Origin: an uncultured delta proteobacterium
Lineage (GTDB): Bacteria > Desulfobacterota > Binatia > HRBIN30 > BPIQ01
Direction of reading: 5' to 3'
Assembly: GCA_963761335.1 (NCBI GenBank)
Contig: CAVXGR010000011.1
Coordinates: 512,001 to 576,000, forward strand
Length of the DNA: 64,000 nt
Positions within the stretch are counted from its first letter, which is position 1. Every line of letters starts with the position of its first letter. Positions 16,701 to 38,573 of this stretch are shown here, piece after piece. The translations under genes and the position numbers were made by a program. The notes under the pieces were generated by a model. That model searched no databases and was not told the DNA's origin. It worked only from the letters and a program-made list of their open reading frames with translations.

Positions 16701-18000
16701 GAAGAGAATGTAAAATGGAGAACCGGTGACCGGGGATGGAGAACCGGTTATCGGTTAGCTCTACATTTTTCATCACCGTCGCCGATTGTTCGTTGCGTTC
16801 CTCCGGCGGCCGGGACGGCCGCGCTCCCAGGCGAGCGATCAGACTGGTAGAAGCGGCGTCCCGCCGCTTTCGGTGGCGGGCGGCCGGTCATTCGACATTC
16901 TCCGTCACCGGTCACCGGTTGTTCGTTGCGTTCCTCCGGCGGCCGGGACGGCCGCGCTCCCAGGCGAGCGATCAGACTGGTAGAAGCGGCGTCCCGCCGC
17001 TTTCGGTGGCGGGCGGCCGCTCATTCGACATTCTCCGTCACCGTCGCCGATTGTTCGCTGCGTTCCTCCGGCGGCCGGGACGGCCGCGCTCCCAGGCGAG
17101 CGATCAGACCAGTAGAAGCGGCGTCCCGCCGCTTTCGGTGGCGGGCGGCCGGTCATTCGACATTCTCCGTCACCGTCGCCGGTTGTTCGCTGCGTTCCTC
17201 CGGCGGCCGGGACGGCCGCGCTCCCAGGCGAGCGATCAGACCAGTAGAAGCGGCGTCCCGCCGCTTTCGGTGGCGGGCGGCCGGTCATTCGACATTCTCC
17301 GTCACCGTCGCCGGTTGTTCGCTGCGTTCCTCCGGCGGCCGGGACGGCCGCGCTCCCAGGCGAGCGATCAGACCAGTAGAAGCGGCGTCCCGCCGCTTTC
17401 GGTGGCGGGCGGCCGGTCATTCGACATTCTCCGTCACCGGTCACCGGTTGTTCGTTGCGTTCCTCCGGCGGCCGGGACGGCCGCGCTCGCAGGCGAGCGA
17501 TCAGACCAGTAGAAGCGGCGTCCCGCCGCTTTCGGTGGCGGGCGGCCGGTCATTCGACATTCTCCGTCACCGGTCACCGGTTGTTCGCTGCGTTCCTCCG
17601 GCGGCCGGGACGGCCGCGCTCCCAGGCGAGCGATCAGACCAGTAGAAGCGGCGTCCCGCCGCTTTCGGTGGCGGGCGGCCGGTCATTCGACATTCTCCGT
17701 CACCGTCGCCGGTTGTTCGTTGTGTTCCTCCGGCGGCCGGGACGGCCGCGCTCCCAGGCGAGCGATCAGACCAGTAGAAGCGGCGTCCCGCCGCTTTCGG
17801 TGGCGGGCGGCCGGTCATTCTACATTCTCCGTCACCGTCGCCGATTGTTCGTTGTGTTCCTCCGGCGGCCGGGACGGCCGCGCTCCCAGGCGAGCGATCA
17901 GACTGGTAGAAGCGGCGTCCCGCCGCTTTCGGTGGCGGGCGGCGGGTCATTCTACATTCTCCGTCACCGGTCACCGGTTCTCCATTTTACATTCTCTTCT
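16701..18000. repeat. Tandem array of 9 x 132-133 bp composite REP units inside a family G element
   Basis: GCGATCAGAC at 16835, 16968, 17100, 17232, 17364, 17497, 17630, 17762, 17894. Confidence 0.97.
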
Positions 18001-20635
18001 CTTCTTCTCCCGTCTTCTCCGCCAGCCAGCGGTTCAACCCGCGCGCCGCCCGGCGGCGGAACTCCTCGTTGAGATCGAAGCGCTCGAGCGCCTGCTTGAG
18101 GGCGCGCTTGGCGGTCGGCACCGGGTGGGCGCGGAAGAAGGCGGTCACCTCTTTCTTGTAGGCGCGTGTCTTCAGCGCCGGAGTGGAGTCCACGACCCGC
18201 GACACCATCATCGGCGGCAGGCGTTTGGAGATGTCCTTCCAGCGCCGCACGACGAACTGCCACGTCTGCTCGCGGGCGTTGCGATTGGCGAACAGGCGCA
18301 TGAGCAGAATGCCGACGTCCTGGGTGGCAACCGCGTCGGTGAGCGCCAGGGCGAGCGTGCGGCGCACCAGCGCCGGGCGGCGGAACTCGGCGAGCGCCAG
18401 CTGGAAGCGGCGGCGCTCCTGGGGCGTGCGAGCGGCGCGGGCGAGATCCTGAAAGCGCGTGTAGAGCGCCTCGTCGCCATGGCGGGCGGTGATGTTGACC
18501 AGCGAGTCGGCGAGGTTCGGCTCGATCGCGGTGCGCTCGCGGGCGTACTCCTCGAAGTGGGCGCGCGCCTCGGCCGCGACTCCGGGATCCTCGGCGATCT
18601 CGCCGACGATGCGCAGCAGCGCCGCGCGGCGCAGCCGGCGATCGTCGGACTCGCCGGCGGCGGCGCTCCAGCCGAGCTCGCTCCACGCCGGAGAGAACGC
18701 CGAGCCGACCCAGCGGTGAAAGCGCCGCCGGCCGCCGCCCTCGTCCTCGAGGAGCTGATCCTCGGTGAAGCCGAGCGGCGCCATGAGCGAGCCGAGGACG
18801 TCGAAGTCGGTTTCGCCGCGCAGCGCATCGGCGAGCGAGAGAAAGCTCTCGATCTTGCCGTGACCGGCGCGCAGCGCCGCCCACTGATGGCCGATGAGGC
18901 CCATGCGCTCGACGGGCGTCAGCACCTCGGAGAGCGAGGCGGCGAGTGCCGCGAGCGTCTCCTCGTCGTGGAGCGGCCGGTAGAAGCCGCCCTCGGCGGC
19001 GTTGGCGTAGTACCAGGGAATCTTTCCGGCGCCGAGATCGAGCCGATCGCGGGAACGCGTCATCAGGTGGCGCAGCAGCTGCGGGGCGCGGCGTCCGGGA
19101 ACCTTGACGACCAGCGGGATCGGCCACGTCTGCGGCGTCGCCTTCGCCTTGCTGCTCGCGAAGAAGCGCTGCTGGCGCATGGCGAGCGCGGTGCGCCCGC
19201 CGCGCGAAGTGCGGCTCACCTCCAGCAGCGGAAACCCCGGCTGCTCGATCCAGTCGCGCACGATGCGCGTCACCTTCTGCCGCGACGCTTCCTCGAGTGC
19301 CCGCCACAGATCGGCGGCCTCGGCGTTGCCCTCGCGGTGGCGGCGAATGTACTTGCGCACGCCATTGCGAAAGGCATTTGCCCCCAGGTAGTTCTCCACC
19401 ATGCGCACCACCGAGGCACCCTTCTCGTAGGTGATGGCGTCGAAGTTCTCGGTGGCCTGCGCGGGGTTGTCAACCTCCGCATAAATCGGGTGCGTGTTGT
19501 TGAGGGCGTCGAGAGCGAGCGCGGCGGCGCGGTGATGTTCGAAATTGTTCCACATGCGCCATTCTGGGTGCCACTCGTCGATCACGCGAAAAGCCATCCA
19601 GGTGGCGAACGCCTCGTTGAGCCAGAGATCGTTCCACCACTTCATGGTCACCAGGTCGCCGTACCACATGTGCGCCAGCTCATGCGCAATCACCTCGGCG
19701 ACGCGCTTGCGCTCGGGCAGCGTGATGGTGGCCGGATCGACGAGCAGCAGGGTCTCGCGAAAGAACACCGCCCCGGCATTCTCCATGGCACCTGCTTCGA
19801 AGTCCGGCACCGCGACCAGGTCGAGCTTCTCGTACGGATACGGCAGGCCGAAGTATTTCTCCAGACGCGACAGCGACTCGGCCGCGGCCTCGAGGGCGAA
19901 ATCGGCGAGATCGCCTTTCCCGGGGACGAACCAGACCCGCACTGGCGTGCGCCCGACGCGCTTCTCGGCGGAGCACTCCAGCTGACCGACGGCGAGAGCG
20001 CAGAGATACGTGGAGAGCGGCGGCGTCGACTTGAAGTGAACCGTCTTGCGGCCGTCGCCGTGCTCCTCGAGGCGCTCGATCGGGCTGTTCGAGACGACCG
20101 CATGCGCGGCGCTGGTGGTGACCGAGAAGACGAAGCGCGCCTTGAAGCTGGGCTCGTCGAAGCACGGGAAGAAGCGCCGGGCGTCGGCGGCCTCGAGCTG
20201 GGTGAAGCCGTAGCGCCGCCCATCGCTCTCGGCGCCGTAGAAGCCCCGCAGGCTGGTCTGCAAGCGGCCGCTGAACTCGAGCGTCAGGCGCGACTTGCCA
20301 GGCGGAATTGCCTGCGGGAAGCGCAGCTCGACGGTCTCGCGCGCCGGGTGCAGGGCGACCTCGGCCGTCTGCGCGGCGCGGCCGGCAGTCGCGCCGGCGG
20401 CGGTGATCTGCATGTCGGCGGCGTGCAGCTCGATGCGCTCCGCCGCCTTCGAGAGGGTCAGCTCGATGTCGACGCGGCCGCGATAGGTGCCGGCGTCCAG
20501 ATCCGGCTCGATATGCACCCGGTAGCGTGCCGGTCGAATCTGCTCGGCGAGGCGAAAACGCTCATCGCTCGGGCGGGCCGCAGGTGCGGTTCTCTTGCGG
20601 GCGGGCTTTGACTTGCGTGCGCGGCTCTTTGGCAA
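17987..20635 (-). CDS. pepN: M1 family aminopeptidase with ERAP1-like C-terminal domain
   Basis: GAMEN and HELAH-x18-E motifs, ARRFFPCFDEP, YEKGASV; TTG start at 20635 with GGAGGAG RBS. Confidence 0.93.
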   Translation of the reverse strand: MPKSRARKSKPARKRTAPAARPSDERFRLAEQIRPARYRVHIEPDLDAGTYRGRVDIELTLSKAAERIELHAADMQITAAGATAGRAAQTAEVALHPARETVELRFPQAIPPGKSRLTLEFSGRLQTSLRGFYGAESDGRRYGFTQLEAADARRFFPCFDEPSFKARFVFSVTTSAAHAVVSNSPIERLEEHGDGRKTVHFKSTPPLSTYLCALAVGQLECSAEKRVGRTPVRVWFVPGKGDLADFALEAAAESLSRLEKYFGLPYPYEKLDLVAVPDFEAGAMENAGAVFFRETLLLVDPATITLPERKRVAEVIAHELAHMWYGDLVTMKWWNDLWLNEAFATWMAFRVIDEWHPEWRMWNNFEHHRAAALALDALNNTHPIYAEVDNPAQATENFDAITYEKGASVVRMVENYLGANAFRNGVRKYIRRHREGNAEAADLWRALEEASRQKVTRIVRDWIEQPGFPLLEVSRTSRGGRTALAMRQQRFFASSKAKATPQTWPIPLVVKVPGRRAPQLLRHLMTRSRDRLDLGAGKIPWYYANAAEGGFYRPLHDEETLAALAASLSEVLTPVERMGLIGHQWAALRAGHGKIESFLSLADALRGETDFDVLGSLMAPLGFTEDQLLEDEGGGRRRFHRWVGSAFSPAWSELGWSAAAGESDDRRLRRAALLRIVGEIAEDPGVAAEARAHFEEYARERTAIEPNLADSLVNITARHGDEALYTRFQDLARAARTPQERRRFQLALAEFRRPALVRRTLALALTDAVATQDVGILLMRLFANRNAREQTWQFVVRRWKDISKRLPPMMVSRVVDSTPALKTRAYKKEVTAFFRAHPVPTAKRALKQALERFDLNEEFRRRAARGLNRWLAEKTGEEEKRM

Positions 20636-20653
20636 GGCGACTCCTCCGTTCGG

Positions 20654-20833
20654 CAGTGTCCCAGTTTGCCGGTCCGACTCTGCAACTATCTCCCGCCCGC
20701 CTCGCGCAAGGGTCTCCTCTCCCCGCATTCTTTTCGCGGGGAGAGGATCAAGGTGAGGGGCTTCTTCCTCACTGAAAGTTCACGATTTCCCCTCACCCTG
20801 ACCCTCTCCCGCCAAAGAGGGCGGGAGAGGGGA
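20654..20833. repeat. Repeat family B copy with tail
   Basis: Highly similar to 45389-45575. Confidence 0.88.
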
Positions 20834-20962: not shown

Positions 20963-22641
20963 TTACGGCCGCATCGAGCGCGCCGCCCGCGTCAGGGCCC
21001 AGAGCATCGCCAGGGCGAGGAACAGGATCATCAGCAGGCCGGCCGGCGAGGTCGGCGAGGCGACCACCGGAATCGGCGGGCGCGTCCGCGTCGGCGACGG
21101 CGTGAAGGTCTCCGTCGGCGTCACCGTCGGCGTCTCCGTCGGCGTCAAGGTCGGCGTCTGGGTCGGCGTCGTCGTCGGCGTGTTCGTCGGTGTGCGCGTC
21201 GGCGTCTCCGTCGGCGTGTTCGTCGGCGTCGTCCGTCGGCGTGTTGGTCGGCGTCTCCGTCGGCGTATTCGTCGGCGTATTCGTCGGCGTCACCGTCGGC
21301 GTGTTGGTCGGGGTGTTCGTCGGCGTGCTGGTCGGCGTCTCCGTCGGCGTATTCGTCGGCGTTTCCGTCGGCGTATTCGTCGGCGTTTCCGTCGGCGTGC
21401 TGGTCGGCGTCTCCGTCGGCGTGGCGGTCGGCGTGTTGGTCGGCGTGCTCGTCGGCGTCTCCGTCGGCGTCTCCGTCGGCGTGGCGGTCGGCGTGTTCGT
21501 CGGCGTTTCCGTCGGCGTGCTCGGTCGGCGTGTTCGTCCGTCGGCGTGTTCGGTCGGCGTGCTCGTCGGCGTGCTCGTCGGCGTCTCCGTCGGCGTGTTC
21601 GTCGGCGTATTGCCGTCGGCGTGGCCGTCGGTGTCTCGGTCGGCGTGTCCGTCGGCGTGCTCGTCGGCGTCTCGGTCGGCGTCTCCGTCGGCGTGCTGGT
21701 CGGCGTCGGCGTCAGCGTGAAGAAGATCTGGTTCTGCTGCGCCCCCTCAGTGGTCGTCTGCATCAGGCTGCCGTCTGCCGTGAACCCAGCCGCTGCAAAT
21801 CCAACGCTATTCGATCCGTCCTGCGTGGCCGTGAAGACGATGATCTGGCAGGTGGAGGTGCTGGAGCAGTTTCCCTGGAGGAGGAAGCCGTCCGGGCGGG
21901 CCGGCTGCGAGGTCGGATTGCCGACCCGGGTTCCGGAGGTGTCGTCGAAGGTGATCGACTGATTGGTCACCTCTCCCGTATTCGGATCGGAGAAGGTGTT
22001 GCCCACTCCACCGACCGGAAAGGCCATGGTGTTGCCGCTACAGGTCACCGGGTTGCCGAACATGGTGATGGTGCGGCGTGGTGCTCACGTCGACGGCGGC
22101 CGGAACGGCGCTGGGATTCGTGGCAGAATTGGGATCGGCCATGGACACCGGTACCAGATCCTCGGTCGAGAAGGCGGCGTTGGTGCTCACCGTCCGCGTG
22201 CCGGGGCCGGGCAGGGTGAAGACGCCGGAGCCGCCGGCGCCGGCCGGATTGAAGTTGGTGGAGCAGGAGACGGTGTTGGTGTTGAAGCCGGAGAGCACGG
22301 TTGTACGCATCCGGTTGGGCAGGAGCACGTTTGGGCCGGCGGAGAAAGCCGTCAGCACCGTGCCCGACGGACCGATCTCGGAGAGGCTGCACGTAGTGCC
22401 GGAATTCAGGGCAACGCTGGTCACCATCGTGCCGATCGAGCCCGGACCCGGTGGTGAGGATCATGTAGACGGTGTTGTTGTTGGACACGCAGCGCTCGAC
22501 GGTGAGCGCCCAGACCGAGGAGCTCACCAGAAGAGCGCAGCTGCCGATCGCGAGGGCGGCGATCCGGATCAATGAGGGTGCCGACTTTCGAGCCGGTGCT
22601 GCCGGGCAGGCTGCCCGGGCTTGGTCCACTCTCACACGCAT
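20963..22641 (-). CDS. Secreted Thr-Pro-repeat surface protein with C-terminal sorting signal (paralog A); frameshifted as sequenced
   Basis: Signal peptide to ALTVERCVS; reading continues across small insertions near 22440, 22075 and in the 12-nt repeats; ends [39 protein letters not shown]. Confidence 0.8.
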
Positions 22642-22704
22642 CTCTCCACCACCTTTCCTAACTGCTGGTGCAAGCTCGCTTCTCGGCCCTGTTGCAGACG
22701 ACAC

Positions 22705-24025
22705 TCAGCTCTTCGCTCCGAAGCGCGTAGCCCGGGACAGACCCCAGATCATCGCGGCAATCAGTCCCAGGATCATCAGGAGACCGGCCGGGGACGTCGG
22801 CGAGGAGACCACCGGAATCGGCGGCCGCGTGTTCGTCGGCGAAGCCGTCGGCGTGCGCGTCGGAGTGACCGTGGGGGTGATCGTCGGCGTCAGCGTCGGC
22901 GTGATCGTCGGCGTCTCTGTCGGCGTGATCGTCGGCGTCAGCGTCGGCGTGATCGTCGGCGTCTCCGTCGGCGTCAGTGTCGGGGTAATCGTCGGCGTCT
23001 CGGTCGGCGTGATCGTCGGCGTCTCCGTCGGCGTGATCGTCGGCGTCTCCGTCGGCGTCTGCCGTCGGCGTGATCGTCGGCGTCTCCGTCGGCGTCACCG
23101 TGTTGAAGATCTGATTCTGCTGCGCCCCCTCCGTGGTGTTCTGCATGAAGCTGCCGTCCGCCGTGAAGCCCGCGGCGGAGGTGCCAAAGCTGTTGGCGCC
23201 GTCCATGGTGGCGATGAATACGATCGTCTGGCAGGTGGCGGGGTTCGAGCAGTTGCCCTGCAGCAGGAAGCCGTCCGGGCGGCTCGGCTGCGAGGTCGGA
23301 TTGCCGATGCGGGTTCCGGAGGTGTCGTCGAGGGTGACCGACTGGTTGGCCACCTCACCGGTATTCGGATCCGAGAAGGTCGTACCCGACCCGCCGATCG
23401 GGAAAACCATGGCATTTCCGCTGCAGACAACGGGGTTGCCAGATTCCGTGATCGTGCGCGAGGTGAGAATATCCACCGCGGGTGGGACAGCGCTAGGATC
23501 GGTCGCGAAATTGGTGTCGCCCGTGGTCACCGGAACCAACGGCTCGGTGGTCGTGTTCGGGTCGGCGCTGACAATCTGAGTCCCACCTGGGAGCGTCAGG
23601 GCACCCTTTCCTCCAGCCGCGGTAGCATTGAAGTTCGTCGAGCAGGAGATCGTGTTGTCAGGCAGTCCCGAGATCACCTGGGTGCGCACCCGGTTCGGGA
23701 GGAGCGGCCCCGGACCGGCGGCAAAGGCCGTCAGCACCGTACCTGCTGGACCGATCTCCGAGAGGCTGCAGGGGCTACCGGCATTGAAGCCGACGCTGGT
23801 CACCATGGTGCCGATGTTGCCCGAGCCCGTGGTGATGATCATGTAGGCGTGGTTGTCCTGCGAAACGCAGCGCTCGACGGTGAGGGCGCTGGCGATGCCG
23901 CTCAAGCCGAGCGTCGCGGCGACGACGACGGCAGCGGCTCGGGAGAACAGGTGACTGTGCCCGCGAATCTTGCCAACGAGCGACTCAGCCTCGTACTGCG
24001 CGTATCGATTCATCTCTGCTCCCAC
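22705..24025 (-). CDS. Secreted Thr-Pro-repeat surface protein with C-terminal sorting signal (paralog B); one frameshift near 23061
   Basis: GTG start with AAGGAGG RBS; N-terminal domain highly similar to paralog A; ends [40 protein letters not shown]. Confidence 0.82.
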
Positions 24026-24121
24026 GAGCCCCTCCTTAACTCATCTTGTCCGCCACATGTTTGTGATCGCGGGCGGCAAACGACCGGCGTGTACCTATCG
24101 GAGAGGAGGCTCGCTGTCAAG

Positions 24122-24158
24122 TGAAAAGAAGCGGGGTCCCGCCGGCTTCCGCCCCGCT
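24122..24158 (-). terminator. Intrinsic terminator-like hairpin
   Basis: AGCGGGG..CCCCGCT followed by TCTTTT on the minus strand, just upstream of a TTGACA hexamer (24120-24115). Confidence 0.45.
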
Positions 24159-24855
24159 CAACGCCTGCAAAACCGCCGATCTACAAGCCGAATTGCGTTG
24201 CGGCGCCTCCGCGGGGGGTCGTCCAGGCACGCCGCCTCGAGATAACGATGTTTTGCGACCCCGCGGGACTCCCCCAGAGCCGTTCGGGCGCGGGTTCCCT
24301 CTCCCGCACTACTCGCGGGAGAGGGGTCAGGGTGAGGGCCACCGAGCTCCCTGGGCTGGGCAGCTCCCATCGGCTGCAGCCGATGGTCCGGCTTCGCCGG
24401 TCAATCTCGTTCCCCTCATCCTGACCTTCTCCCGTCCGGGAGAAGGAACCCATGGCCGCAGCGTCCTGACTTTACCCCTCTTGCGCGGGCGCGAGATCAC
24501 CTCGCGATGGAGCAGGCAATCTCGCGGGGTATCACACCCCTTCCGCCCGCGACATGTTGGCGGAGATCCCTGGCACGGCAAGTGGAATACCATCCGCCAG
24601 ACGACCTGCCGATTGGGGAAGCCCGCCATCGAAAGAGGCTTCCAGCAAATAATTATACTGGACAGACCGCATGTTACTTTGGTATAGCCGCGCCGCCGCG
24701 CAAGCCTTCAGTGGGGAGCGTTGCGCGGCGGTTTGCATCCGGCGACAGATCGCGTCACGGCATTCCCGGCCAAGGCGTCGAACTTTTGCCGGGGCGTATT
24801 CGCTGGGGCCGGCGGAGTGAACGATAAAGTGGCTGGCACGGCGGATGTAACCGGG

Positions 24856-27800
24856 ATGGGCATGAGGTATCGAGCAAAGCAGAATCCCACGCGAAGAAAA
24901 TCCTTCGTCCCCGTTCTCTGGACCCTTCCGCTGCTGCTGGCACTGGCCGGCACCAGTCTCGCCTCGGGCATCATCGACACAATGGTCGGAGGCTCGAACG
25001 GCGACGGCTACCCCGCAGACGTTGCGACCTCCAATCCGAAGGGCCTCGCGCTCGACCCCAGCGGCAACCTCTTCTTCGCCGACACCTTCGACAATCGCGT
25101 TCGCCGGGTGGATGAGCGGACGAACATCATTACCAGCGTCGCCGGCATCGGCCTCTTCGGCTACTCGGGCGACGGGGGACCAGGAACCGAGGCCAAGCTC
25201 GGATACCCGACCGGCGTTGCCAGCGACTCGCAGGGCAACATCTACTTCGCCGACCAGCTGAACCATCGGGTGCGCCGCATCGACCACTTCACCGGCATCA
25301 TCATCACCGTCGCCGGCAACGGCTCGTCCGGCTACGGCGGCGACGGCGGCCTCGCCACCAGCGCCAAGCTGAACTACCCGAGCGGCGTGTCCATCGCCGC
25401 CGACGGCAGCCTGCTGATCGCCGACAGCAGCAACAACAGGATCCGGCGGGTGGCGGCCGGCATCATCACCACCGTCGCCGGCACGGGAGTCAGCGGCTAC
25501 GATGCGTCCTCCGAGGGCGCCCCCGCCAATCAGTCCAGAGTGAGCAATCCCACCGACGTGGTCGCCGACTCGCAAGGCGGCTACTACATCGCCGATCGCG
25601 GCAACTGCCGCATCCGCTACGTCGACGGTCTCAGCGCCAACGCCAGGATCTTCACCATCGCCGGCATCTCGACCTGCGGCTTCTCGGGCGACGGCGGACC
25701 GGCGATCGAGGCCAAGCTCAACGGCCCGCAGTACCTGTCGCTGTATGCCGATCACTTCCTCTACGTCGCCGAGCTGATCACGCCGCGGGTTCGCCGCATC
25801 GATCTCTCCACCGGCATCATCAGCAGCTACGCCGGCGTCGGCTTCCCGGGCTACGACGGCGACGGCGGCCCGGCGACGCAGGCGCACATCGACGGGCCGG
25901 CCGGCCTCGCCAACGACGCCGCCGGCGGCCTCTACATCGGCGAGTCCTCCGGCGGCCGCGTCCGCTACGTCGATCCCTCCGGGGTGATCAGCACGGTGGT
26001 GGGCGGCGGCAACGGCGACGGGCTGCCGGCAGACGTCGCCAAGGTCGAGCCGCAGCGCATGACCTTCGACCGCGACGGCAACCTGCTGATCAGCGACCGC
26101 GGCACCAACAGCGTGCGCCGCATCGACGCGCTGACCAACGTCACCTCGACGCTGGCGGGATCAGGCGTGTACGGGTACTCCGGCGACGGCGGCCTCGCCA
26201 CCGCCGCGAAGCTCGCCTACCCGACCGGCCTCGCCGCCGACAACGACGGCAACGTCTACGTGGTCGACCAGCTCAACCAGCGCGTCCGCCGCATCGACCG
26301 CAACGGCGTGATCACCACCTTCGCCGGCAACGGCTCGAGCGGCTACGGGGGCGACGGCGGCCCGGCCACCTCGGCGAGGCTCAACTACCCGCAAGGTGCG
26401 ACCCTGGCGCCGGACGGCAGCCTGGTGATCGCCGACTCCAGCAACCAGCGCGTGCGCCGCGTCAGCCCACAGGGCATCATCACCACCATCGCCGGCAACG
26501 GCCTGCTCGGCTACAGCGGCGACGGCGTCGCCGCCACCAGCACCCGCCTCAGCAACCCCACCGACGTGGCCTACGACGACGCCGGCAACCTCTACATCGC
26601 CGATCGCAACAACTGCCGCGTGCGCCTGGTCGACGTCAACGGCATCATCAGCACCATCGCCGGCAGCGGCGGCTGCGCCTTCGGCGGCGACGGCGGCCCG
26701 GCCACGCAAGCCTATCTCAACGGACCGCTGGTCCTCGCCTGGGACCCGCGCGGCGCCCTCTACATCGCCGAGGAGTTCATGCCGCGGGTGCGCCAGGTCG
26801 ACCTCGGCTCCGGAATCATCACCACCTACGCCGGCACCGGTGTGCCCGGCTACAGCGGCGACGGCGGCCCCGCCAACCAGGCGCAGTTGAAGCGCACCAG
26901 CGGCGTGCTCGTCGACGCCGGCTTGCGCCTGCTCTACATCGCCGACTCCGACGCCCAGAACATCCGCAGCGTCGAGCTCGACAGCAGCAATCCGCCGGCG
27001 GCGACGGCAACGCCGACGCCGATCCCGTGGACACCGACGGCGCCGCCTACGCCGACGTCGACTCCGCTGCCGTCGACGCCAACACCGACACCGATCCCGT
27101 CGACGCCGACGGCACCGGCGACCGCCAGCCCGACGCGCACCGCGACGGTGACCCGGACGCCCACCCGCACCGGGACACCGACGCAAACGCCGACGGTGAC
27201 CCGGACGCCGACCTCGACCAACACTCCTTTCCTGACCTTCACGGCGACGCGGACGCTGACGCCAACCCGCACGGGAACGGCGACCCTCACGGCGACGCTG
27301 TCGCCGACACCGACCAGGACGGCGATTCCGCCGACCGCTACTCACACCGCGGTGCCGCCGACGGCGACCAGAACCCTCACCCCGACGCCGGCGTGGACAG
27401 CCACCCCGGCGGTCAACCTGGCGCTCGGCCAGGCAGCGGCACAGTCGAGCGTGCTGGACGGCGCCGTGCCCTCGCGGGCCGTTGACGGCAACACCAACGG
27501 CAACTGGAGCGGCGGCTCGGTCACCCACACCAACCTCAACCAGGATCCGTGGTGGCAAGTGGATCTCGGCGTCGTCGACTCGATCGCCAGCGTCGACGTG
27601 TGGAACCGCACCGACTGCTGCGGCGACCGGCTCAAGGGATTCTACGTGCTCGTCTCCGACGTCCCCTTCACCTCGACGGGGCTGGCCTCGACCCTGAGCC
27701 AGTCCGGTGTGTCGAGCTACTTCGTCGCCGGACAGGCCGGTAGCCCCACCAACGTCCCCGTGAACCGCTCCGGCCGCTACCTGCGCGTGCAGATCAGCGG

Positions 27801-29346
27801 GGCCCAGTACCTGGCGCTCGCCGAGGTGCAGGTGTGGCGCGGCAATGGGCCGATTCCGCCGACGGCGACGCCGACGAATACGGACACGCCGATGCCGGCG
27901 AGCACGGCGACACCGACCAGCGGCGGCGGGCTCATCGACATCGCCCTCCACCAGCCCGCCACGCAGTCGAGCACGCTCTCCGGCGCCGACGCCGCGCGCG
28001 CCGTCGACGGCAACACCAGCGGCAACTGGAACGACAACTCCCTCACCCACACCAACTTCGACTATCAGGGGTGGTGGCAGGTCGACCTGGGCACCGTGGC
28101 CCCGATCAACAGCATCGACGTCTGGAACCGCACCGACTGCTGCTCCGAACGTCTCAGCAACTTCTACGTCCTGGTCTCCGACACGCCGTTCACCTCGACC
28201 GACCTGAACGCGACCAGGAACCAGTCCGGCGTCTCCGCGTACTACGTCTCCGGAACCGCCGGCAGCCCGACCAGCGTTCCCGTGGATCGCAGCGGCCGCT
28301 ACGTGCGCGTGCAGCTGAGCGGCGCCGAGTACCTGGCGCTCGCCGAGGTGCAGATCTGGAGCAGTGGCGGGCCGCTACCGCCCACCTTCACGCCGACGGC
28401 GACTCCGGCCGGCGGCGGCGCCGGAGTGAACCTGGCGCTCGGGCAGCCGGCGTCGCAGTCGAGCACGATGATCGGCGCGGTGGCCAGCCGCGCCGTCGAC
28501 GGCAACACCAGCGGCAACTGGAGCGACGGCTCGGTCACCCACACCAACTTCGACTTCCAGGCGTGGTGGCAGGTCGACCTCGGCTCGGTGCAGTCGGTCG
28601 GCGACGTCGACGTGTGGAACCGCACCGACTGCTGCGGCGATCGGGTCACCTCGTTCTACGTCCTGGTGTCGGAATCGCCGTTCGCCAGCGACAACCTCGG
28701 CAACCTGCTCGACGATCCCGCGGTCACCGGCTTCTACGTCGACGGTCAGGCCGGGACGCCGACCACGGTCACGGTCAACCGCCTGGCGCGCTACGTGCGC
28801 GTGCAGCTGAGCGGCGCCAACTACCTGAACCTCGCCGAGGTCCAGGTGATGGGCGCCGGCGGACCGCTGCCGCCGACGCCGACACCGACGGCGACCGTGC
28901 AGATGGGCTCGACCAATCTCTCCCTCGGCCGGCCGGCGACGCAGTCCAGCACCATCGAGGGCGCCATCGCCGCACGCGCCGTCGACGGCAACACCAACGG
29001 CAACTGGTCAGCCGGCTCGGTCTCGCACACCAACTTCGACGTCGAGTCGTGGTGGCAGGTCGATCTCGGCGCCGTGCAGCCGATCAGCGTCGTCGACGTG
29101 TGGAACCGCACCGACTGCTGCGGCGACCGCCTGACGTCGTTCTACGTCCTGGTCTCCGACACGCCGTTCACCTCGAACGACCTGGATACGGCCAAGAGTC
29201 AGTCCGGTGTCAGCTCCTACTTCGTCAGCGGCCGCGCCATGACGCCGACCATGGTCGGCGTCAGCCGCACCGGCCGCTACGTGCGCGTCCAGTTCCCCCG
29301 GCAGGAATACCTGGCCCTCGCCGAAGTCCAGGTCTGGGGACAGTGA
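24856..29346 (+). CDS. Secreted NHL-repeat beta-propeller protein with Thr-Pro linker and four F-type lectin (FTP/F5-8 type C) domains
   Basis: Repeated GYSGDGGPATxAxL NHL blades; 4x AVDGNT..THT..WWQVDLG..WNRTDCCxxR; start 24856 or 24862. Confidence 0.92.
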   Translation: MGMRYRAKQNPTRRKSFVPVLWTLPLLLALAGTSLASGIIDTMVGGSNGDGYPADVATSNPKGLALDPSGNLFFADTFDNRVRRVDERTNIITSVAGIGLFGYSGDGGPGTEAKLGYPTGVASDSQGNIYFADQLNHRVRRIDHFTGIIITVAGNGSSGYGGDGGLATSAKLNYPSGVSIAADGSLLIADSSNNRIRRVAAGIITTVAGTGVSGYDASSEGAPANQSRVSNPTDVVADSQGGYYIADRGNCRIRYVDGLSANARIFTIAGISTCGFSGDGGPAIEAKLNGPQYLSLYADHFLYVAELITPRVRRIDLSTGIISSYAGVGFPGYDGDGGPATQAHIDGPAGLANDAAGGLYIGESSGGRVRYVDPSGVISTVVGGGNGDGLPADVAKVEPQRMTFDRDGNLLISDRGTNSVRRIDALTNVTSTLAGSGVYGYSGDGGLATAAKLAYPTGLAADNDGNVYVVDQLNQRVRRIDRNGVITTFAGNGSSGYGGDGGPATSARLNYPQGATLAPDGSLVIADSSNQRVRRVSPQGIITTIAGNGLLGYSGDGVAATSTRLSNPTDVAYDDAGNLYIADRNNCRVRLVDVNGIISTIAGSGGCAFGGDGGPATQAYLNGPLVLAWDPRGALYIAEEFMPRVRQVDLGSGIITTYAGTGVPGYSGDGGPANQAQLKRTSGVLVDAGLRLLYIADSDAQNIRSVELDSSNPPAATATPTPIPWTPTAPPTPTSTPLPSTPTPTPIPSTPTAPATASPTRTATVTRTPTRTGTPTQTPTVTRTPTSTNTPFLTFTATRTLTPTRTGTATLTATLSPTPTRTAIPPTATHTAVPPTATRTLTPTPAWTATPAVNLALGQAAAQSSVLDGAVPSRAVDGNTNGNWSGGSVTHTNLNQDPWWQVDLGVVDSIASVDVWNRTDCCGDRLKGFYVLVSDVPFTSTGLASTLSQSGVSSYFVAGQAGSPTNVPVNRSGRYLRVQISGAQYLALAEVQVWRGNGPIPPTATPTNTDTPMPASTATPTSGGGLIDIALHQPATQSSTLSGADAARAVDGNTSGNWNDNSLTHTNFDYQGWWQVDLGTVAPINSIDVWNRTDCCSERLSNFYVLVSDTPFTSTDLNATRNQSGVSAYYVSGTAGSPTSVPVDRSGRYVRVQLSGAEYLALAEVQIWSSGGPLPPTFTPTATPAGGGAGVNLALGQPASQSSTMIGAVASRAVDGNTSGNWSDGSVTHTNFDFQAWWQVDLGSVQSVGDVDVWNRTDCCGDRVTSFYVLVSESPFASDNLGNLLDDPAVTGFYVDGQAGTPTTVTVNRLARYVRVQLSGANYLNLAEVQVMGAGGPLPPTPTPTATVQMGSTNLSLGRPATQSSTIEGAIAARAVDGNTNGNWSAGSVSHTNFDVESWWQVDLGAVQPISVVDVWNRTDCCGDRLTSFYVLVSDTPFTSNDLDTAKSQSGVSSYFVSGRAMTPTMVGVSRTGRYVRVQFPRQEYLALAEVQVWGQ

Positions 29347-29350
29347 GGCA

Positions 29351-29463
29351 GGTTGTTGAGTTGTTAGGTTGTTGGTTGTGAGGTGCTCGGGGTCGGAATC
29401 GGCATCGATTCCGATCCCGACTGGTCAACCTAACAACCTAACAACCAACAACCTAACAACCTG
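29351..29463. repeat. Repeat family A variant with central hairpin, between convergent genes
   Basis: GGTTGTTGAGTTGTTAGGTTGTTGG..CCTAACAACCTAACAACCAACAACC; central GTCGGAATCG..CGATTCCGA. Confidence 0.85.
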
Positions 29464-29469
29464 CCCTTC

Positions 29470-30129
29470 TCACCGGCGGGCTTTGGTGCGCGTGCGCTGC
29501 TGGCGGCGCGCCGCGGCGCGGTTTCCGGAGGCGGCGACGGCCGGCTCGGGCACCTTCGGCTGCACCCAGCGGATCAGCTGGCGGAAGTGGACGCCGGCCC
29601 AGATGACCACTGGGAACAGCTGCGTGTCGAAGCTCTCGAAGAAGGCGTCGGTGAACTGGTAGATCGTGCGCTGGGTGTTGCTGTAGAACTCGAAGCTGAA
29701 GCCGCCGAGCTGCCAGGCCCAGGTGGACTTGATGGCCACCACCAGACCGATCACCTGGAGCGCCATGGCGACGCCGACGGCGATCCCCAGGCGCACGAAG
29801 CGCGCCCTCCAGGTCGGCGCCGGAGTGGCGAGCATGAGCGGGATCAGCAGCACCATGTTCGCCTGCACCCAGTCCGCCGGGATTCCCGGAGGGTGCAGGT
29901 GGGGGAACATGCGGTGCACGAAGAAGATGCCCCTGCCCTGCGCGAACACCGTGGTGGCGGCGCGCGTCGGCGGCGGTCCGAAGAGCTCGGTGGCGCGCAT
30001 GGCGACCTGCGCCATGGCGGCGAGCAGCCTGGTGTAGAACGGCGCCACGTACTCCCAGAGGAAGTAGGTCAGCGCGAAGAAGAACAGCAGGCGCGCCAGG
30101 AAGACGATGGGCTTAACGCCCAGGGGCAT
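29470..30129 (-). CDS. Exosortase H-associated membrane protein
   Basis: Multi-TM, NMVLLIPLMLATP motif; overlaps the exosortase stop. Confidence 0.7.
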   Translation of the reverse strand: MPLGVKPIVFLARLLFFFALTYFLWEYVAPFYTRLLAAMAQVAMRATELFGPPPTRAATTVFAQGRGIFFVHRMFPHLHPPGIPADWVQANMVLLIPLMLATPAPTWRARFVRLGIAVGVAMALQVIGLVVAIKSTWAWQLGGFSFEFYSNTQRTIYQFTDAFFESFDTQLFPVVIWAGVHFRQLIRWVQPKVPEPAVAASGNRAAARRQQRTRTKARR

Positions 30130-30655
30130 GCACGAATCGTCCGGCCCAGAAGAGCCAAGTTGCGACCGCCACCGCGACCACCAGCGCCTGGGCGATGTAC
30201 ACGTGCGTGTCGTGGAAGAGCTGGGCGTAGTAGATGCCGATCAGGAACAGGGCGACGACGCGGATCAGGTTCAAGCCGTTGATCACCAGAAGCCCCAGCA
30301 CGGAGCCGATCACCTTGGCGCGCGCCGACGCCGGGTACGCCAGAACCGCCGACAGATAGATCATGCTGGGCACCGCCCCCGAGCACGCCGGGCTGACGTC
30401 CACCTCGAACTGTCCGGAGCCGAGAATGGTGCCGTTGCGGCTGACGTCGAAGCCGAGGAAGTGGCCGACGCCGTCGAGAAACAGCCAGCTGAGAAAAGCG
30501 CTGACCCTCGCCAACCCGGAGGCGAGATCGATGCGCTCGACGATCGGGGTGTAGGTCAGCATGGTGAAGAACACCACGATGAGCAGCACGAAAAGGCTCA
30601 CCACCCGGATTCCCACCCAGTTGGCAACAATCATCTGGCGAATGCGATCAAACAT
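30113..30655 (-). CDS. xrtH: Exosortase H/archaeosortase-type protein-sorting transpeptidase
   Basis: Short multi-TM protein with catalytic Cys (PACSG), Arg (NLIRV) and His (THVY); AVLAYPAS motif. Confidence 0.85.
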   Translation of the reverse strand: MFDRIRQMIVANWVGIRVVSLFVLLIVVFFTMLTYTPIVERIDLASGLARVSAFLSWLFLDGVGHFLGFDVSRNGTILGSGQFEVDVSPACSGAVPSMIYLSAVLAYPASARAKVIGSVLGLLVINGLNLIRVVALFLIGIYYAQLFHDTHVYIAQALVVAVAVATWLFWAGRFVHAPGR

Positions 30656-37314: not shown

Positions 37315-38573
37315 CAGTGCGTCATGAGCCTTGCGGCTCACCAATAGACGATGAAAATGAGGCCGGGGATCTGCGCCGGCAAGAGACTTGGAGGTCCTCG
37401 TCCGGCTGAAGTTCGCCCCGGAGGGGCGGTGGCGTGTAGCCCCGGGTGAAACCCGGGGAAGAATGCGCGCTCCGTCAGGCGCGCCCCGCCAGGGGCGCGG
37501 GCAAATTTTCGTCGATGTCACGCCTGTAGGCCGATGATCACCCCTGGGTGCGTGGGAAGCTCATCAACGTGATTCACGCGGCCTCTACGCCTGCGCCCCT
37601 GCGGGGCGCTGATCTGGGCCAATCGGAACGCGCTCCCCGGGTTGACACCCGGGGCTACATGCCGGCGCCCCTCCGGGGCGCTGATCTGGGCCAATCGGAA
37701 CGCGGTCCCCGGGTTGGCACCCGGGGCTACATGCCGGCGCCCCTGCGGGGCGCTGATCTGGGCCAATCGGAACGCGCTCCCCGGGTTGACACCCGGGGCT
37801 ACATGCCGGCGCCCCTCCGGGGCGCTGATCTGGGCCAATCGGAACGCGGTCCCCGGGTGACACCCGGGGCTACATGCCGGCGCCCCTCCGGGGCGCTGAT
37901 CTGGGCCAATCGGAACGCGCTCCCCGGGTGACACCCGGGGCTACATGCCGGCGCCCCTCCGGGGCGCTGATCTGGGCCAATCGGAACGCGCTCCCCGGGT
38001 TGGCACCCGGGGCTACATGCCTGCGCCCCTGCGGGGCGCTGATCTGGGCCAATCGGAACGCGCTCCCCGGGTTGACACCCGGGGCTACATGCCGGCGCCC
38101 CTGCGGGGCGCTGATCTGGGCCAATCGGAACGCGCTCCCCGGGTTGACACCCGGGGCTACATGCCGGCGCCCCTCCGGGGCGCTGATCTGGGCCAATCGG
38201 AACGCGGTCCCCGGGTGACACCCGGGGCTACATGCCGGCGCCCCTCCGGGGCGCTGATCTGGGCCAATCGGAACGCGCTCCCCGGGTTGGCACCCGGGGC
38301 TACATGCCGGCGCCCCTGCGGGGCGCTGATCTGGGCCAATCGGAACGCGCTCCCCGGGTTGACACCCGGGGCTACATGCCGGCGCCCCTCCGGGGCGATA
38401 ATCTCCACGCCAAGCCCCGGGGCTCCGCCAGACCTTCCGGGGCGATAAGCCTCCACGCCAAGCCCCGGGGCTGCGCCAGACCTTCACCCGATCGATTTTC
38501 GAAGCAGGCAAACTTTTGCGGCCGAGGCCATTCCCCTCCTGTGACTCCGAAGGGCAAAAGTAGCCTGTCCCCC
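37315..38573. mobile_element. Family C element containing an 11 x 71-72 bp tandem GTAG-REP array
   Basis: Collinear with 8163-8600; GATCTGGGCCAATCGG at 37611, 37683, 37755, 37827, 37898, 37969, 38041, 38113, 38185, 38256, 38328. Confidence 0.9.

Follow-up and report, generated by a model that had tools for sequence, protein, structure and literature searches.

A candidate order-specific C-terminal sorting signal and a linked XrtH-like exosortase in an uncultured lineage of Candidatus Binatia

Two tandem genes of an uncultured delta proteobacterium of the class Binatia encode secreted proteins that end in nearly the same C-terminal tail, here called the class II tail, which is very probably a real, apparently uncatalogued, order-specific protein-sorting signal. 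The genes lie in the 64,000-nucleotide stretch of DNA analysed here (the window; contig CAVXGR010000011.1 of assembly GCA_963761335.1, positions 512,001 to 576,000), together with genes for an exosortase of a distinct clade, clade A, and for its membrane partner. We consider it likely that the tail is an exosortase sorting signal specific to this order and read by clade A with that partner; that some enzyme of the exosortase family processes it is highly probable.

Results

A tripartite tail on unrelated secreted proteins

The tail genes (genes 1 and 2) were located by six-frame translation of the window. Each begins with a signal-peptide-like start, continues through a Cys-containing domain and a Thr/Pro repeat, and closes with RPPIPVV(S/A) and 12 further residues, a hydrophobic helix, basic residues and a stop codon; the full tail string runs 26 residues beyond RPPIPVV(S/A), and its core form is PPIPVVxSPTSPAG. 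The first-pass annotation of this DNA, which was made from the sequence by itself, had described the two genes as tandem paralogues with nearly the same tail, as is borne out by their 75% DNA identity across 1075 bp. The consensus of the class is [RP]PP[IV]PV[VI]xSPxSP[AS]G, followed by Leu, a transmembrane (TM) helix and W[MA]LRR. A profile made from the two window tails and four tails of relatives scores 72.8, 71.5 and 32.0 bits at three places of this genome (G000), the next match scoring 12.2; both window tails sit in that six-tail profile, so that the third match alone (32.0 bits) is independent. This third tail is unlinked to the pair (G000 C17:225038-226939; L029) and stands on an unrelated protein with Dicty_CTDC and HYDIN-Ig domains.

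With a 42-tail profile we recovered 112 protein clusters among 1.84 billion representatives. The motif starts 27-44 residues from the C-terminus in all 112, Pro5 is conserved in 100% and Pro10 and Gly15 in 99% each, a TM helix is predicted (at 280-305 of P0004), and at least two Lys/Arg residues fall within the last 14 positions in 109 of the 112 clusters. A crude hydrophobicity test, which is not SignalP, detected a signal-like start in 66 of the 76 full-length members and an internal helix in none of them; a Thr/Pro linker is present in 66/86 members. Genomes carry one to four tails each (105 tails in 46 genomes).

The cargo in front of the tail is varied. By BLAST, 117 N-terminal parts fall into 21 groups; when the five main ones, the largest of them split in two, were compared as profiles, they merged to three lineage-specific sets without detectable profile similarity. 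Nine of 21 tail-related proteins tested had a Pfam match, the domains found on cargo being Ice_binding, SdrD_B, DUF11, HYDIN-Ig, TSP_C and Dicty_CTDC. Proteins homologous to the gene-1 domain finish in a class II tail, in an APAAS-type tail of a second class (class I, described below), in a soluble domain, or in nothing. Elsewhere in this genome are two tandem, tail-less paralogues of the gene-1 domain, 69-77% identical (G000 C12:58062-60433; L197, L198), one of which ends in a soluble C-terminal domain common to P0134-P0139. The portion of Haft's account that concerns tripartite C-terminal sorting signals (bioRxiv 10.1101/2023.06.07.544157) gives eight attributes for them, and each of the eight was found for the class II tail: position, number and linkage, near-invariant residues, helix, basic cluster, signal peptide, unrelated cargo, and homologues with swapped tails.

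Comparison with catalogued sorting signals

None of the 42 tails reached the cut-off of the models for IPTL-CTERM (TIGR04174; best 12.2 against 20.5), VPXXXP-CTERM (TIGR04143; best 23.7 against 30) or PEP-CTERM (TIGR02595; best 13.5 against 16), the motif having no Glu. The Pfam family for IPTL-CTERM, PF18203, gave one weak match among the 42. For MYXO-CTERM, model TIGR03901 was passed by 0/42 tails and the short model TIGR03382 by 2/42, through the helix and the arginines, and the tails have no Cys column. We found no description of the class II tail in the literature searched, which took in neither subscription journals nor supplements.

The IPTL-CTERM/exosortase H system (TIGR04174, PF18203, TIGR04177, NF041730, NF033207) was reportedly defined by Haft in 2012 (J Bacteriol 194:36); its pairing of tail and enzyme is taken here from NCBIfam names. 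It resembles the present system in having an exosortase of 180 amino acids (aa), with XrtH the best model, and a membrane partner encoded next to it. Like IPTL-CTERM, the class II tail starts with [IV]P and runs to S-x-x-G, a helix and Arg, and the same order's genomes also carry IPTL-like class I and midcut-type tails. Unlike IPTL-CTERM, class II has four extra residues between IP and Gly, invariant prolines and a W[MA]LRR end, and is without WG. Clade A, moreover, is not sporadic but occurs as a single copy in almost every genome of one order, with one to four targets per genome, and class II and clade A exist alongside another tail class and another enzyme clade. Judged by sequence, the class II system would work like IPTL-CTERM/XrtH, yet it falls short in the curated membership tests. 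The most frequent weak match (11/42 tails, mostly over the helix part) was to VPXXXP-CTERM/archaeosortase B (TIGR04143, TIGR04144), a small second sorting system next to a main one; that system, however, is archaeal, and the window enzyme scores 44.9 against the archaeosortase cut-off of 150.

The tail and clade A are confined to one order

Among 301 genomes of the class, the tail was detected in 45 of the 50 that belong to the window's order and in 0 of the 251 others; a phylum sample of 146 genomes from other classes had none. When all 52 genomes of the order (one Candidatus Binatia order) were considered, 46 had the tail and 49 had clade A, always as a single copy, and in the high-quality subset each was present in 32/33. 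Clade A was found in 0/251 of the other genomes of the class, the best exosortase match outside the order being at most 41% identical. The clade-A gap in genome G282 is a contig end, and a plasmid search gave no exosortase match. The first-pass annotation had taken the tail for a lineage-specific sorting signal, against which would have spoken either tails that score as ordinary IPTL-CTERM or tails that are widespread in genomes without the exosortase clade; neither the scores nor the scans outside the order refuted its proposal, which we regard as supported.

An XrtH-like exosortase and its membrane partner

The exosortase and partner genes are on the same strand as gene 1, 5.4 kb off, beyond a divergent gene for an NHL/F5-8 protein. 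Cys91, Arg132 and His151, as well as His148, are invariant in 35/35 orthologues, so the nearby same-strand exosortase with an intact Cys/Arg/His triad and a partner, as first annotated, stands. On the superfamily model TIGR04178 the window exosortase scores 48.6 bits against a cut-off of 23, making it a member with its triad intact. The further assignment of the enzyme to XrtH proper does not hold: on the Exosortase H model TIGR04177 it scores 78.7 against a cut-off of 86, five further clade-A proteins score 65.9-83.1 (6/6 tested thus being below the cut-off), and 4/6 controls outside clades A and B pass with 91.2-103.4 bits. The partner gene comes immediately after that of clade A at the loci inspected, which is the position of an XrtH_assoc gene; its product matches NF041730 (XrtH_assoc) weakly, with 15.2 bits against a cut-off of 35, and two of its orthologues gave no match at E 1e-4. 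On these model scores the enzyme is XrtH-like, not XrtH, and the same seems to hold for the partner.

Clade A is monophyletic (SH-aLRT 99) in a quick tree, built without bootstrap and with L160 left out, in which it stands beside proteins that include cut-off-passing XrtH. Close relatives of the enzyme were found at twelve named loci, of which ten come from metagenome-assembled genomes labelled Candidatus Binatia or 'delta proteobacterium', one from an unclassified bacterium and one from a contig labelled Margulisiibacteriota (L006); the last has clade A in a Binatia-like gene order and is probably misbinned or mislabelled. Profile alignment (Prob 0.2%) gave no support to reading the partner as a dead paralogue of the exosortase, and a search of solved structures at E up to 1 gave no match for clade A.

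A second tail class and other exosortases

This genome encodes three exosortases: clade A, a second XrtH-like enzyme (clade B) and XrtK. Clade B (G000 C11:274688-275278; L001, L034) has an INHECT motif and a downstream membrane gene of its own, is without a linked target and stays under the cut-off of the XrtH model; the clade is restricted to the order, where 49/50 genomes carry 84 copies, mostly two per genome. Exosortase K (G000 C27; L035), which passes TIGR04287, is encoded right behind a 730-aa frame with a VPEPG-helix-Arg tail, as a separate dedicated system.

Class I tails, APA[LM]SxxG, gave 20 matches in this genome (G000 L016-L033, on many contigs) and up to 22 per genome in the order; in this genome three matches pass the IPTL cut-off, and the class also matches the midcut-by-XrtH model. 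Class I was found in 44/50 genomes of the order, with divergent forms in three more at looser thresholds. Some class I tails are internal (G000 C5:27256, C4:90979 and C9; L030-L032); three of these are followed by a second signal-like helix, the one on C4 continuing in an apparently shifted frame. The two classes separate cleanly: class II tails score at least 38.6 on their own profile and at most 15.6 on that of class I, class I tails score at most 13.8 on that of class II, and the spacing from the IP/AP dipeptide to Gly is 11 in class II versus 7 in class I. From the S-P-x-G box on, the helix included, the classes align over 28 columns (Prob 90%).

Assigning the class II tail to an enzyme

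Presence and absence cannot pair a tail with an enzyme in this order, because class I and clade B are order-wide too and all the genomes are kin. Linkage alone pairs the class II tail with clade A. The two occur together in 44 genomes and on one contig in 16 of them; in 13 of these 16 (families f1 and f3) they lie within 4.6-15.3 kb of each other, with the exosortase first, then the partner, one or more divergent large surface proteins and the tail pair. Tandem pairs of tail genes were found in 33/46 genomes. Clade B shares a contig with the tail in five genomes, in none of them within 70 kb, and no clade-B exosortase locus examined had a tail. That clade A specifically is the processing enzyme is on balance rather likely; the pairing drawn in the first-pass annotation keeps its support from the 13 linked genomes and becomes less certain with clade B and class I in the same genomes.

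Several observations weigh against a tail dedicated to clade A. The 13 linked cases are one inherited arrangement, not 13 independent events, and 28 of the 44 genomes are uninformative on linkage, with tail and clade A on different contigs. Family f2 has lost the linkage (0.15-1.2 Mb between the two in G014, G132 and G298), as have G068 and G116. In five genomes (G100, G262, G266, G274 and G448) clade A is present and the tail was not found; G216, which is 97% complete in 270 contigs, has two tails, and neither clade A nor the partner was found there. Co-occurrence with the tail is just as good for clade B. In G050 and G206 the class II pair is followed by a class I gene, for which reason clade A may serve both tail classes. 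A DNA-pattern scan of metagenomes adds a further point: among the loci listed, 98/125 had a true tail and 19 had no in-frame motif, and the eight non-tail motif matches printed were without a helix. Clade A was present in two of those 98 tail loci (probably one organism), the partner in one and clade B in none, most contigs being too short; among the loci listed, six had at least 7 kb upstream of the tail, and of these none had clade A, one had the partner at its edge and five had neither.

These observations bear on the possibility that the tail is an exosortase signal not dedicated to clade A, being either cut by clade B or recognised, like class I tails, by every XrtH-like enzyme of the order through the shared S-P-x-G box before the helix. 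In line with this are the equal restriction of clade B to the order, the alignable S-P-x-G portion, the interchange of both tails on one domain family, the class I genes in G050 and G206, and the combination in G216 of tails, clade B and a canonical XrtH. However, the clean separation of the classes by score and spacing, the strict conservation of a longer motif, which suggests a reader of its own, and the lack of a tail-linked clade B among the loci examined make us regard a shared or alternative reader as unlikely.

It is still less probable that the tail is an uncleaved type-I membrane anchor, with its Pro/Ser motif kept as a glycosylation site, helix cap or oligomerisation element. The motif is itself Pro/Ser-rich and is placed after a Thr/Pro linker, as such an anchor might be, yet its tripartite layout has no spacer, occurs on unrelated domains and is swapped with IPTL-like tails on homologues, and an exosortase with an intact triad is its conserved neighbour. 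Cleavage by another intramembrane protease, of the rhombosortase or myxosortase type, is very improbable: Gly-Gly occurs within the helix of many tails, the short MYXO model is passed by two of them and a MYXO-CTERM-like tail (Gly-Gly-Cys, helix, Arg cluster) lies elsewhere in the genome (G000 C17 near 322504), but the class II motif is without the invariant Cys of MYXO-CTERM and no rhombosortase was found in this genome (best 27.6 against a cut-off of 84; myxosortases were not searched for).

Window genes and their frameshifts

Coordinates of the window features are collected in Table 1. Gene 1 differs by one extra base from P0117, an intact 435-aa protein of another assembly that is 97-98% identical and has the same tail; because this intact counterpart is without the extra base, the shift in gene 1 is most likely an assembly error. 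The shifts in gene 2 may be assembly errors or pseudogenisation. A check of reads gave contigs of a near strain only, one of which comes out one base short over 21921-22128, with a single gap; this would fit an error at the gene-2 shift near 22080 if the gap falls there, and offers weak support for error at just that one shift. According to the first-pass annotation, frameshifts hide both tails from standard annotation. This is so for gene 1, whose tail the gene caller dropped (P0116), and not for gene 2, whose tail was called as the orphan P0003. Intact relatives, too, carry the name 'hypothetical protein', and the main cause of the missing tail annotation is that no curated model matches.

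Table 1 Features of the window in the exosortase and tail-gene region
Feature	Coordinates	Strand	Description
Gene 2	20963..22641	-	Secreted beta-domain protein, Thr/Pro linker, class II tail; as assembled here, at least five frameshifts; paralogue of gene 1
Gene-2 class II sorting tail	20963..21082	-	Motif, TM helix, basic residues, stop; in the gene calls an orphan of 53 aa (P0003)
Gene 1	22705..24025 (start 24025/24013)	-	Signal peptide, 261-aa all-beta domain (23884-23102), Thr/Pro linker, class II tail; extra base at 23062
Gene-1 class II sorting tail	22705..22827	-	Six-frame translation, profile matches
Large secreted NHL-repeat and F5/8 protein	24721..29346	+	Divergent; Thr/Pro linkers, no tail; relatives have a large divergent surface protein at the same spot
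Membrane partner of clade-A exosortase	29470..30129	-	Weak XrtH_assoc match; overlaps exosortase gene end
Clade-A XrtH-like exosortase, 180 aa	30113..30655	-	Cys91/Arg132/His151

An aminopeptidase N gene stands beside the tail genes in the window (17987-20728) and in G005 and G132, and in many relatives, at f3 loci such as L004:7190-9823, a gene for a membrane-anchored M1-peptidase-like protein lies upstream of clade A in divergent orientation. The window also contains two near-perfect, REP-like intergenic tandem arrays, at 16773-17979 (132 bp x 9.1) and 37589-38404 (72 bp x 11.4).

Discussion

Cleavage, anchor, choice of enzyme and final location are modelled here by analogy with archaeosortase/PGF-CTERM and PEP-CTERM systems, starting from the portable, order-restricted tail, the intact triad, the clade and the linkage that we observed. 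In the passages describing it, PGF-CTERM/archaeosortase A of Haloferax volcanii provides the mechanism (helix removal and lipid attachment), a Cys/Arg/His triad and surface-layer (S-layer) cargo (bioRxiv 10.1101/2023.06.07.544157; PMC7157517); it differs in having another motif, in being archaeal and in lacking an outer membrane, and the window enzyme scores 16.1 on its enzyme model against a cut-off of 75. If clade A acts in a comparable way, the cargo would be exported via its signal peptide by the Sec route and retained by the C-terminal helix, with the arginines inside. Clade A and the adjacent partner would then recognise the Pro-rich motif, and Cys91 would cut near the junction of motif and helix. 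The mature beta-domain, on a Thr/Pro stalk that is probably O-glycosylated, would receive a lipid-type anchor and be displayed at the surface, possibly through a type II secretion system; this last step is conceivable because a GspD secretin is present.

The cargo is predicted to fold into all-beta domains. The gene-1 domain was modelled as all-beta (predicted local distance difference test score, pLDDT, 95); it had no Foldseek match at E 0.001, and a structure atlas gave leads only. Its best VIA match, to adhesin/cohesin-type sandwiches (Z 6.6, root-mean-square deviation (rmsd) 3.2, 132 aligned), is within the common range, and a second cargo family resembles pilin/cohesin sandwiches (Z 11.3, rmsd 2.9, 134 aligned) with many near ties. 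As modelled, the cargo folds appear to be generic beta-sandwiches that give no indication of function. Gene 1 is unremarkable in codon similarity to ribosomal genes (38th percentile), and a scan for sigma-70 promoters found none. A structural coat role of the cargo is suggested by the near-universal presence of the tail, its one to four copies, the tandem pairs and the Thr/Pro stalks.

By analogy, an S-layer role is plausible. As far as its description in PMC8671808 goes, mela_00855 of Methylomirabilis lanthanidiphila, a hypothetical protein of 316 aa that has a signal peptide and is predicted to end in an IPTL-CTERM tail, was shown to form the S-layer of a diderm bacterium. In size and layout it is similar to the Binatia cargo, the likeness being one of description and not of compared sequences, whereas its tail as described there is a canonical IPTL tail, unlike class II. 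A further, doubtful possibility is that of two orthogonal channels, in which clade B would serve a variable pool of 1-22 IPTL-like (APALS) surface proteins, and the single-copy clade A with its partner would be a dedicated line that cleaves and lipid-anchors the major coat or S-layer subunits, whose exposed domain would have been exchanged among unrelated beta-folds with tail and gene position kept. In that case the S-layer genes of an entire uncultured order could be recognised by the tail.

Exosortase subfamilies with a tail flavour of their own are already established, so that the present finding extends the catalogue and opens no new class. For the tail-bearing surface proteins of one uncultured Binatia order, the protease most likely to read the tag is often encoded a few genes away, and more than 100 clusters of 'hypothetical' proteins gain a predicted location and processing route. 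The class II tail is an order-level marker of this lineage. The chemistry of exosortases is still called unresolved in the relevant parts of the literature cited above, and two separable tails with two exosortase clades per cell form a natural pair for probing how these enzymes choose their substrates. Should the tandem cargo prove to be S-layer protein, the tail would point to the cell-coat genes of the order.

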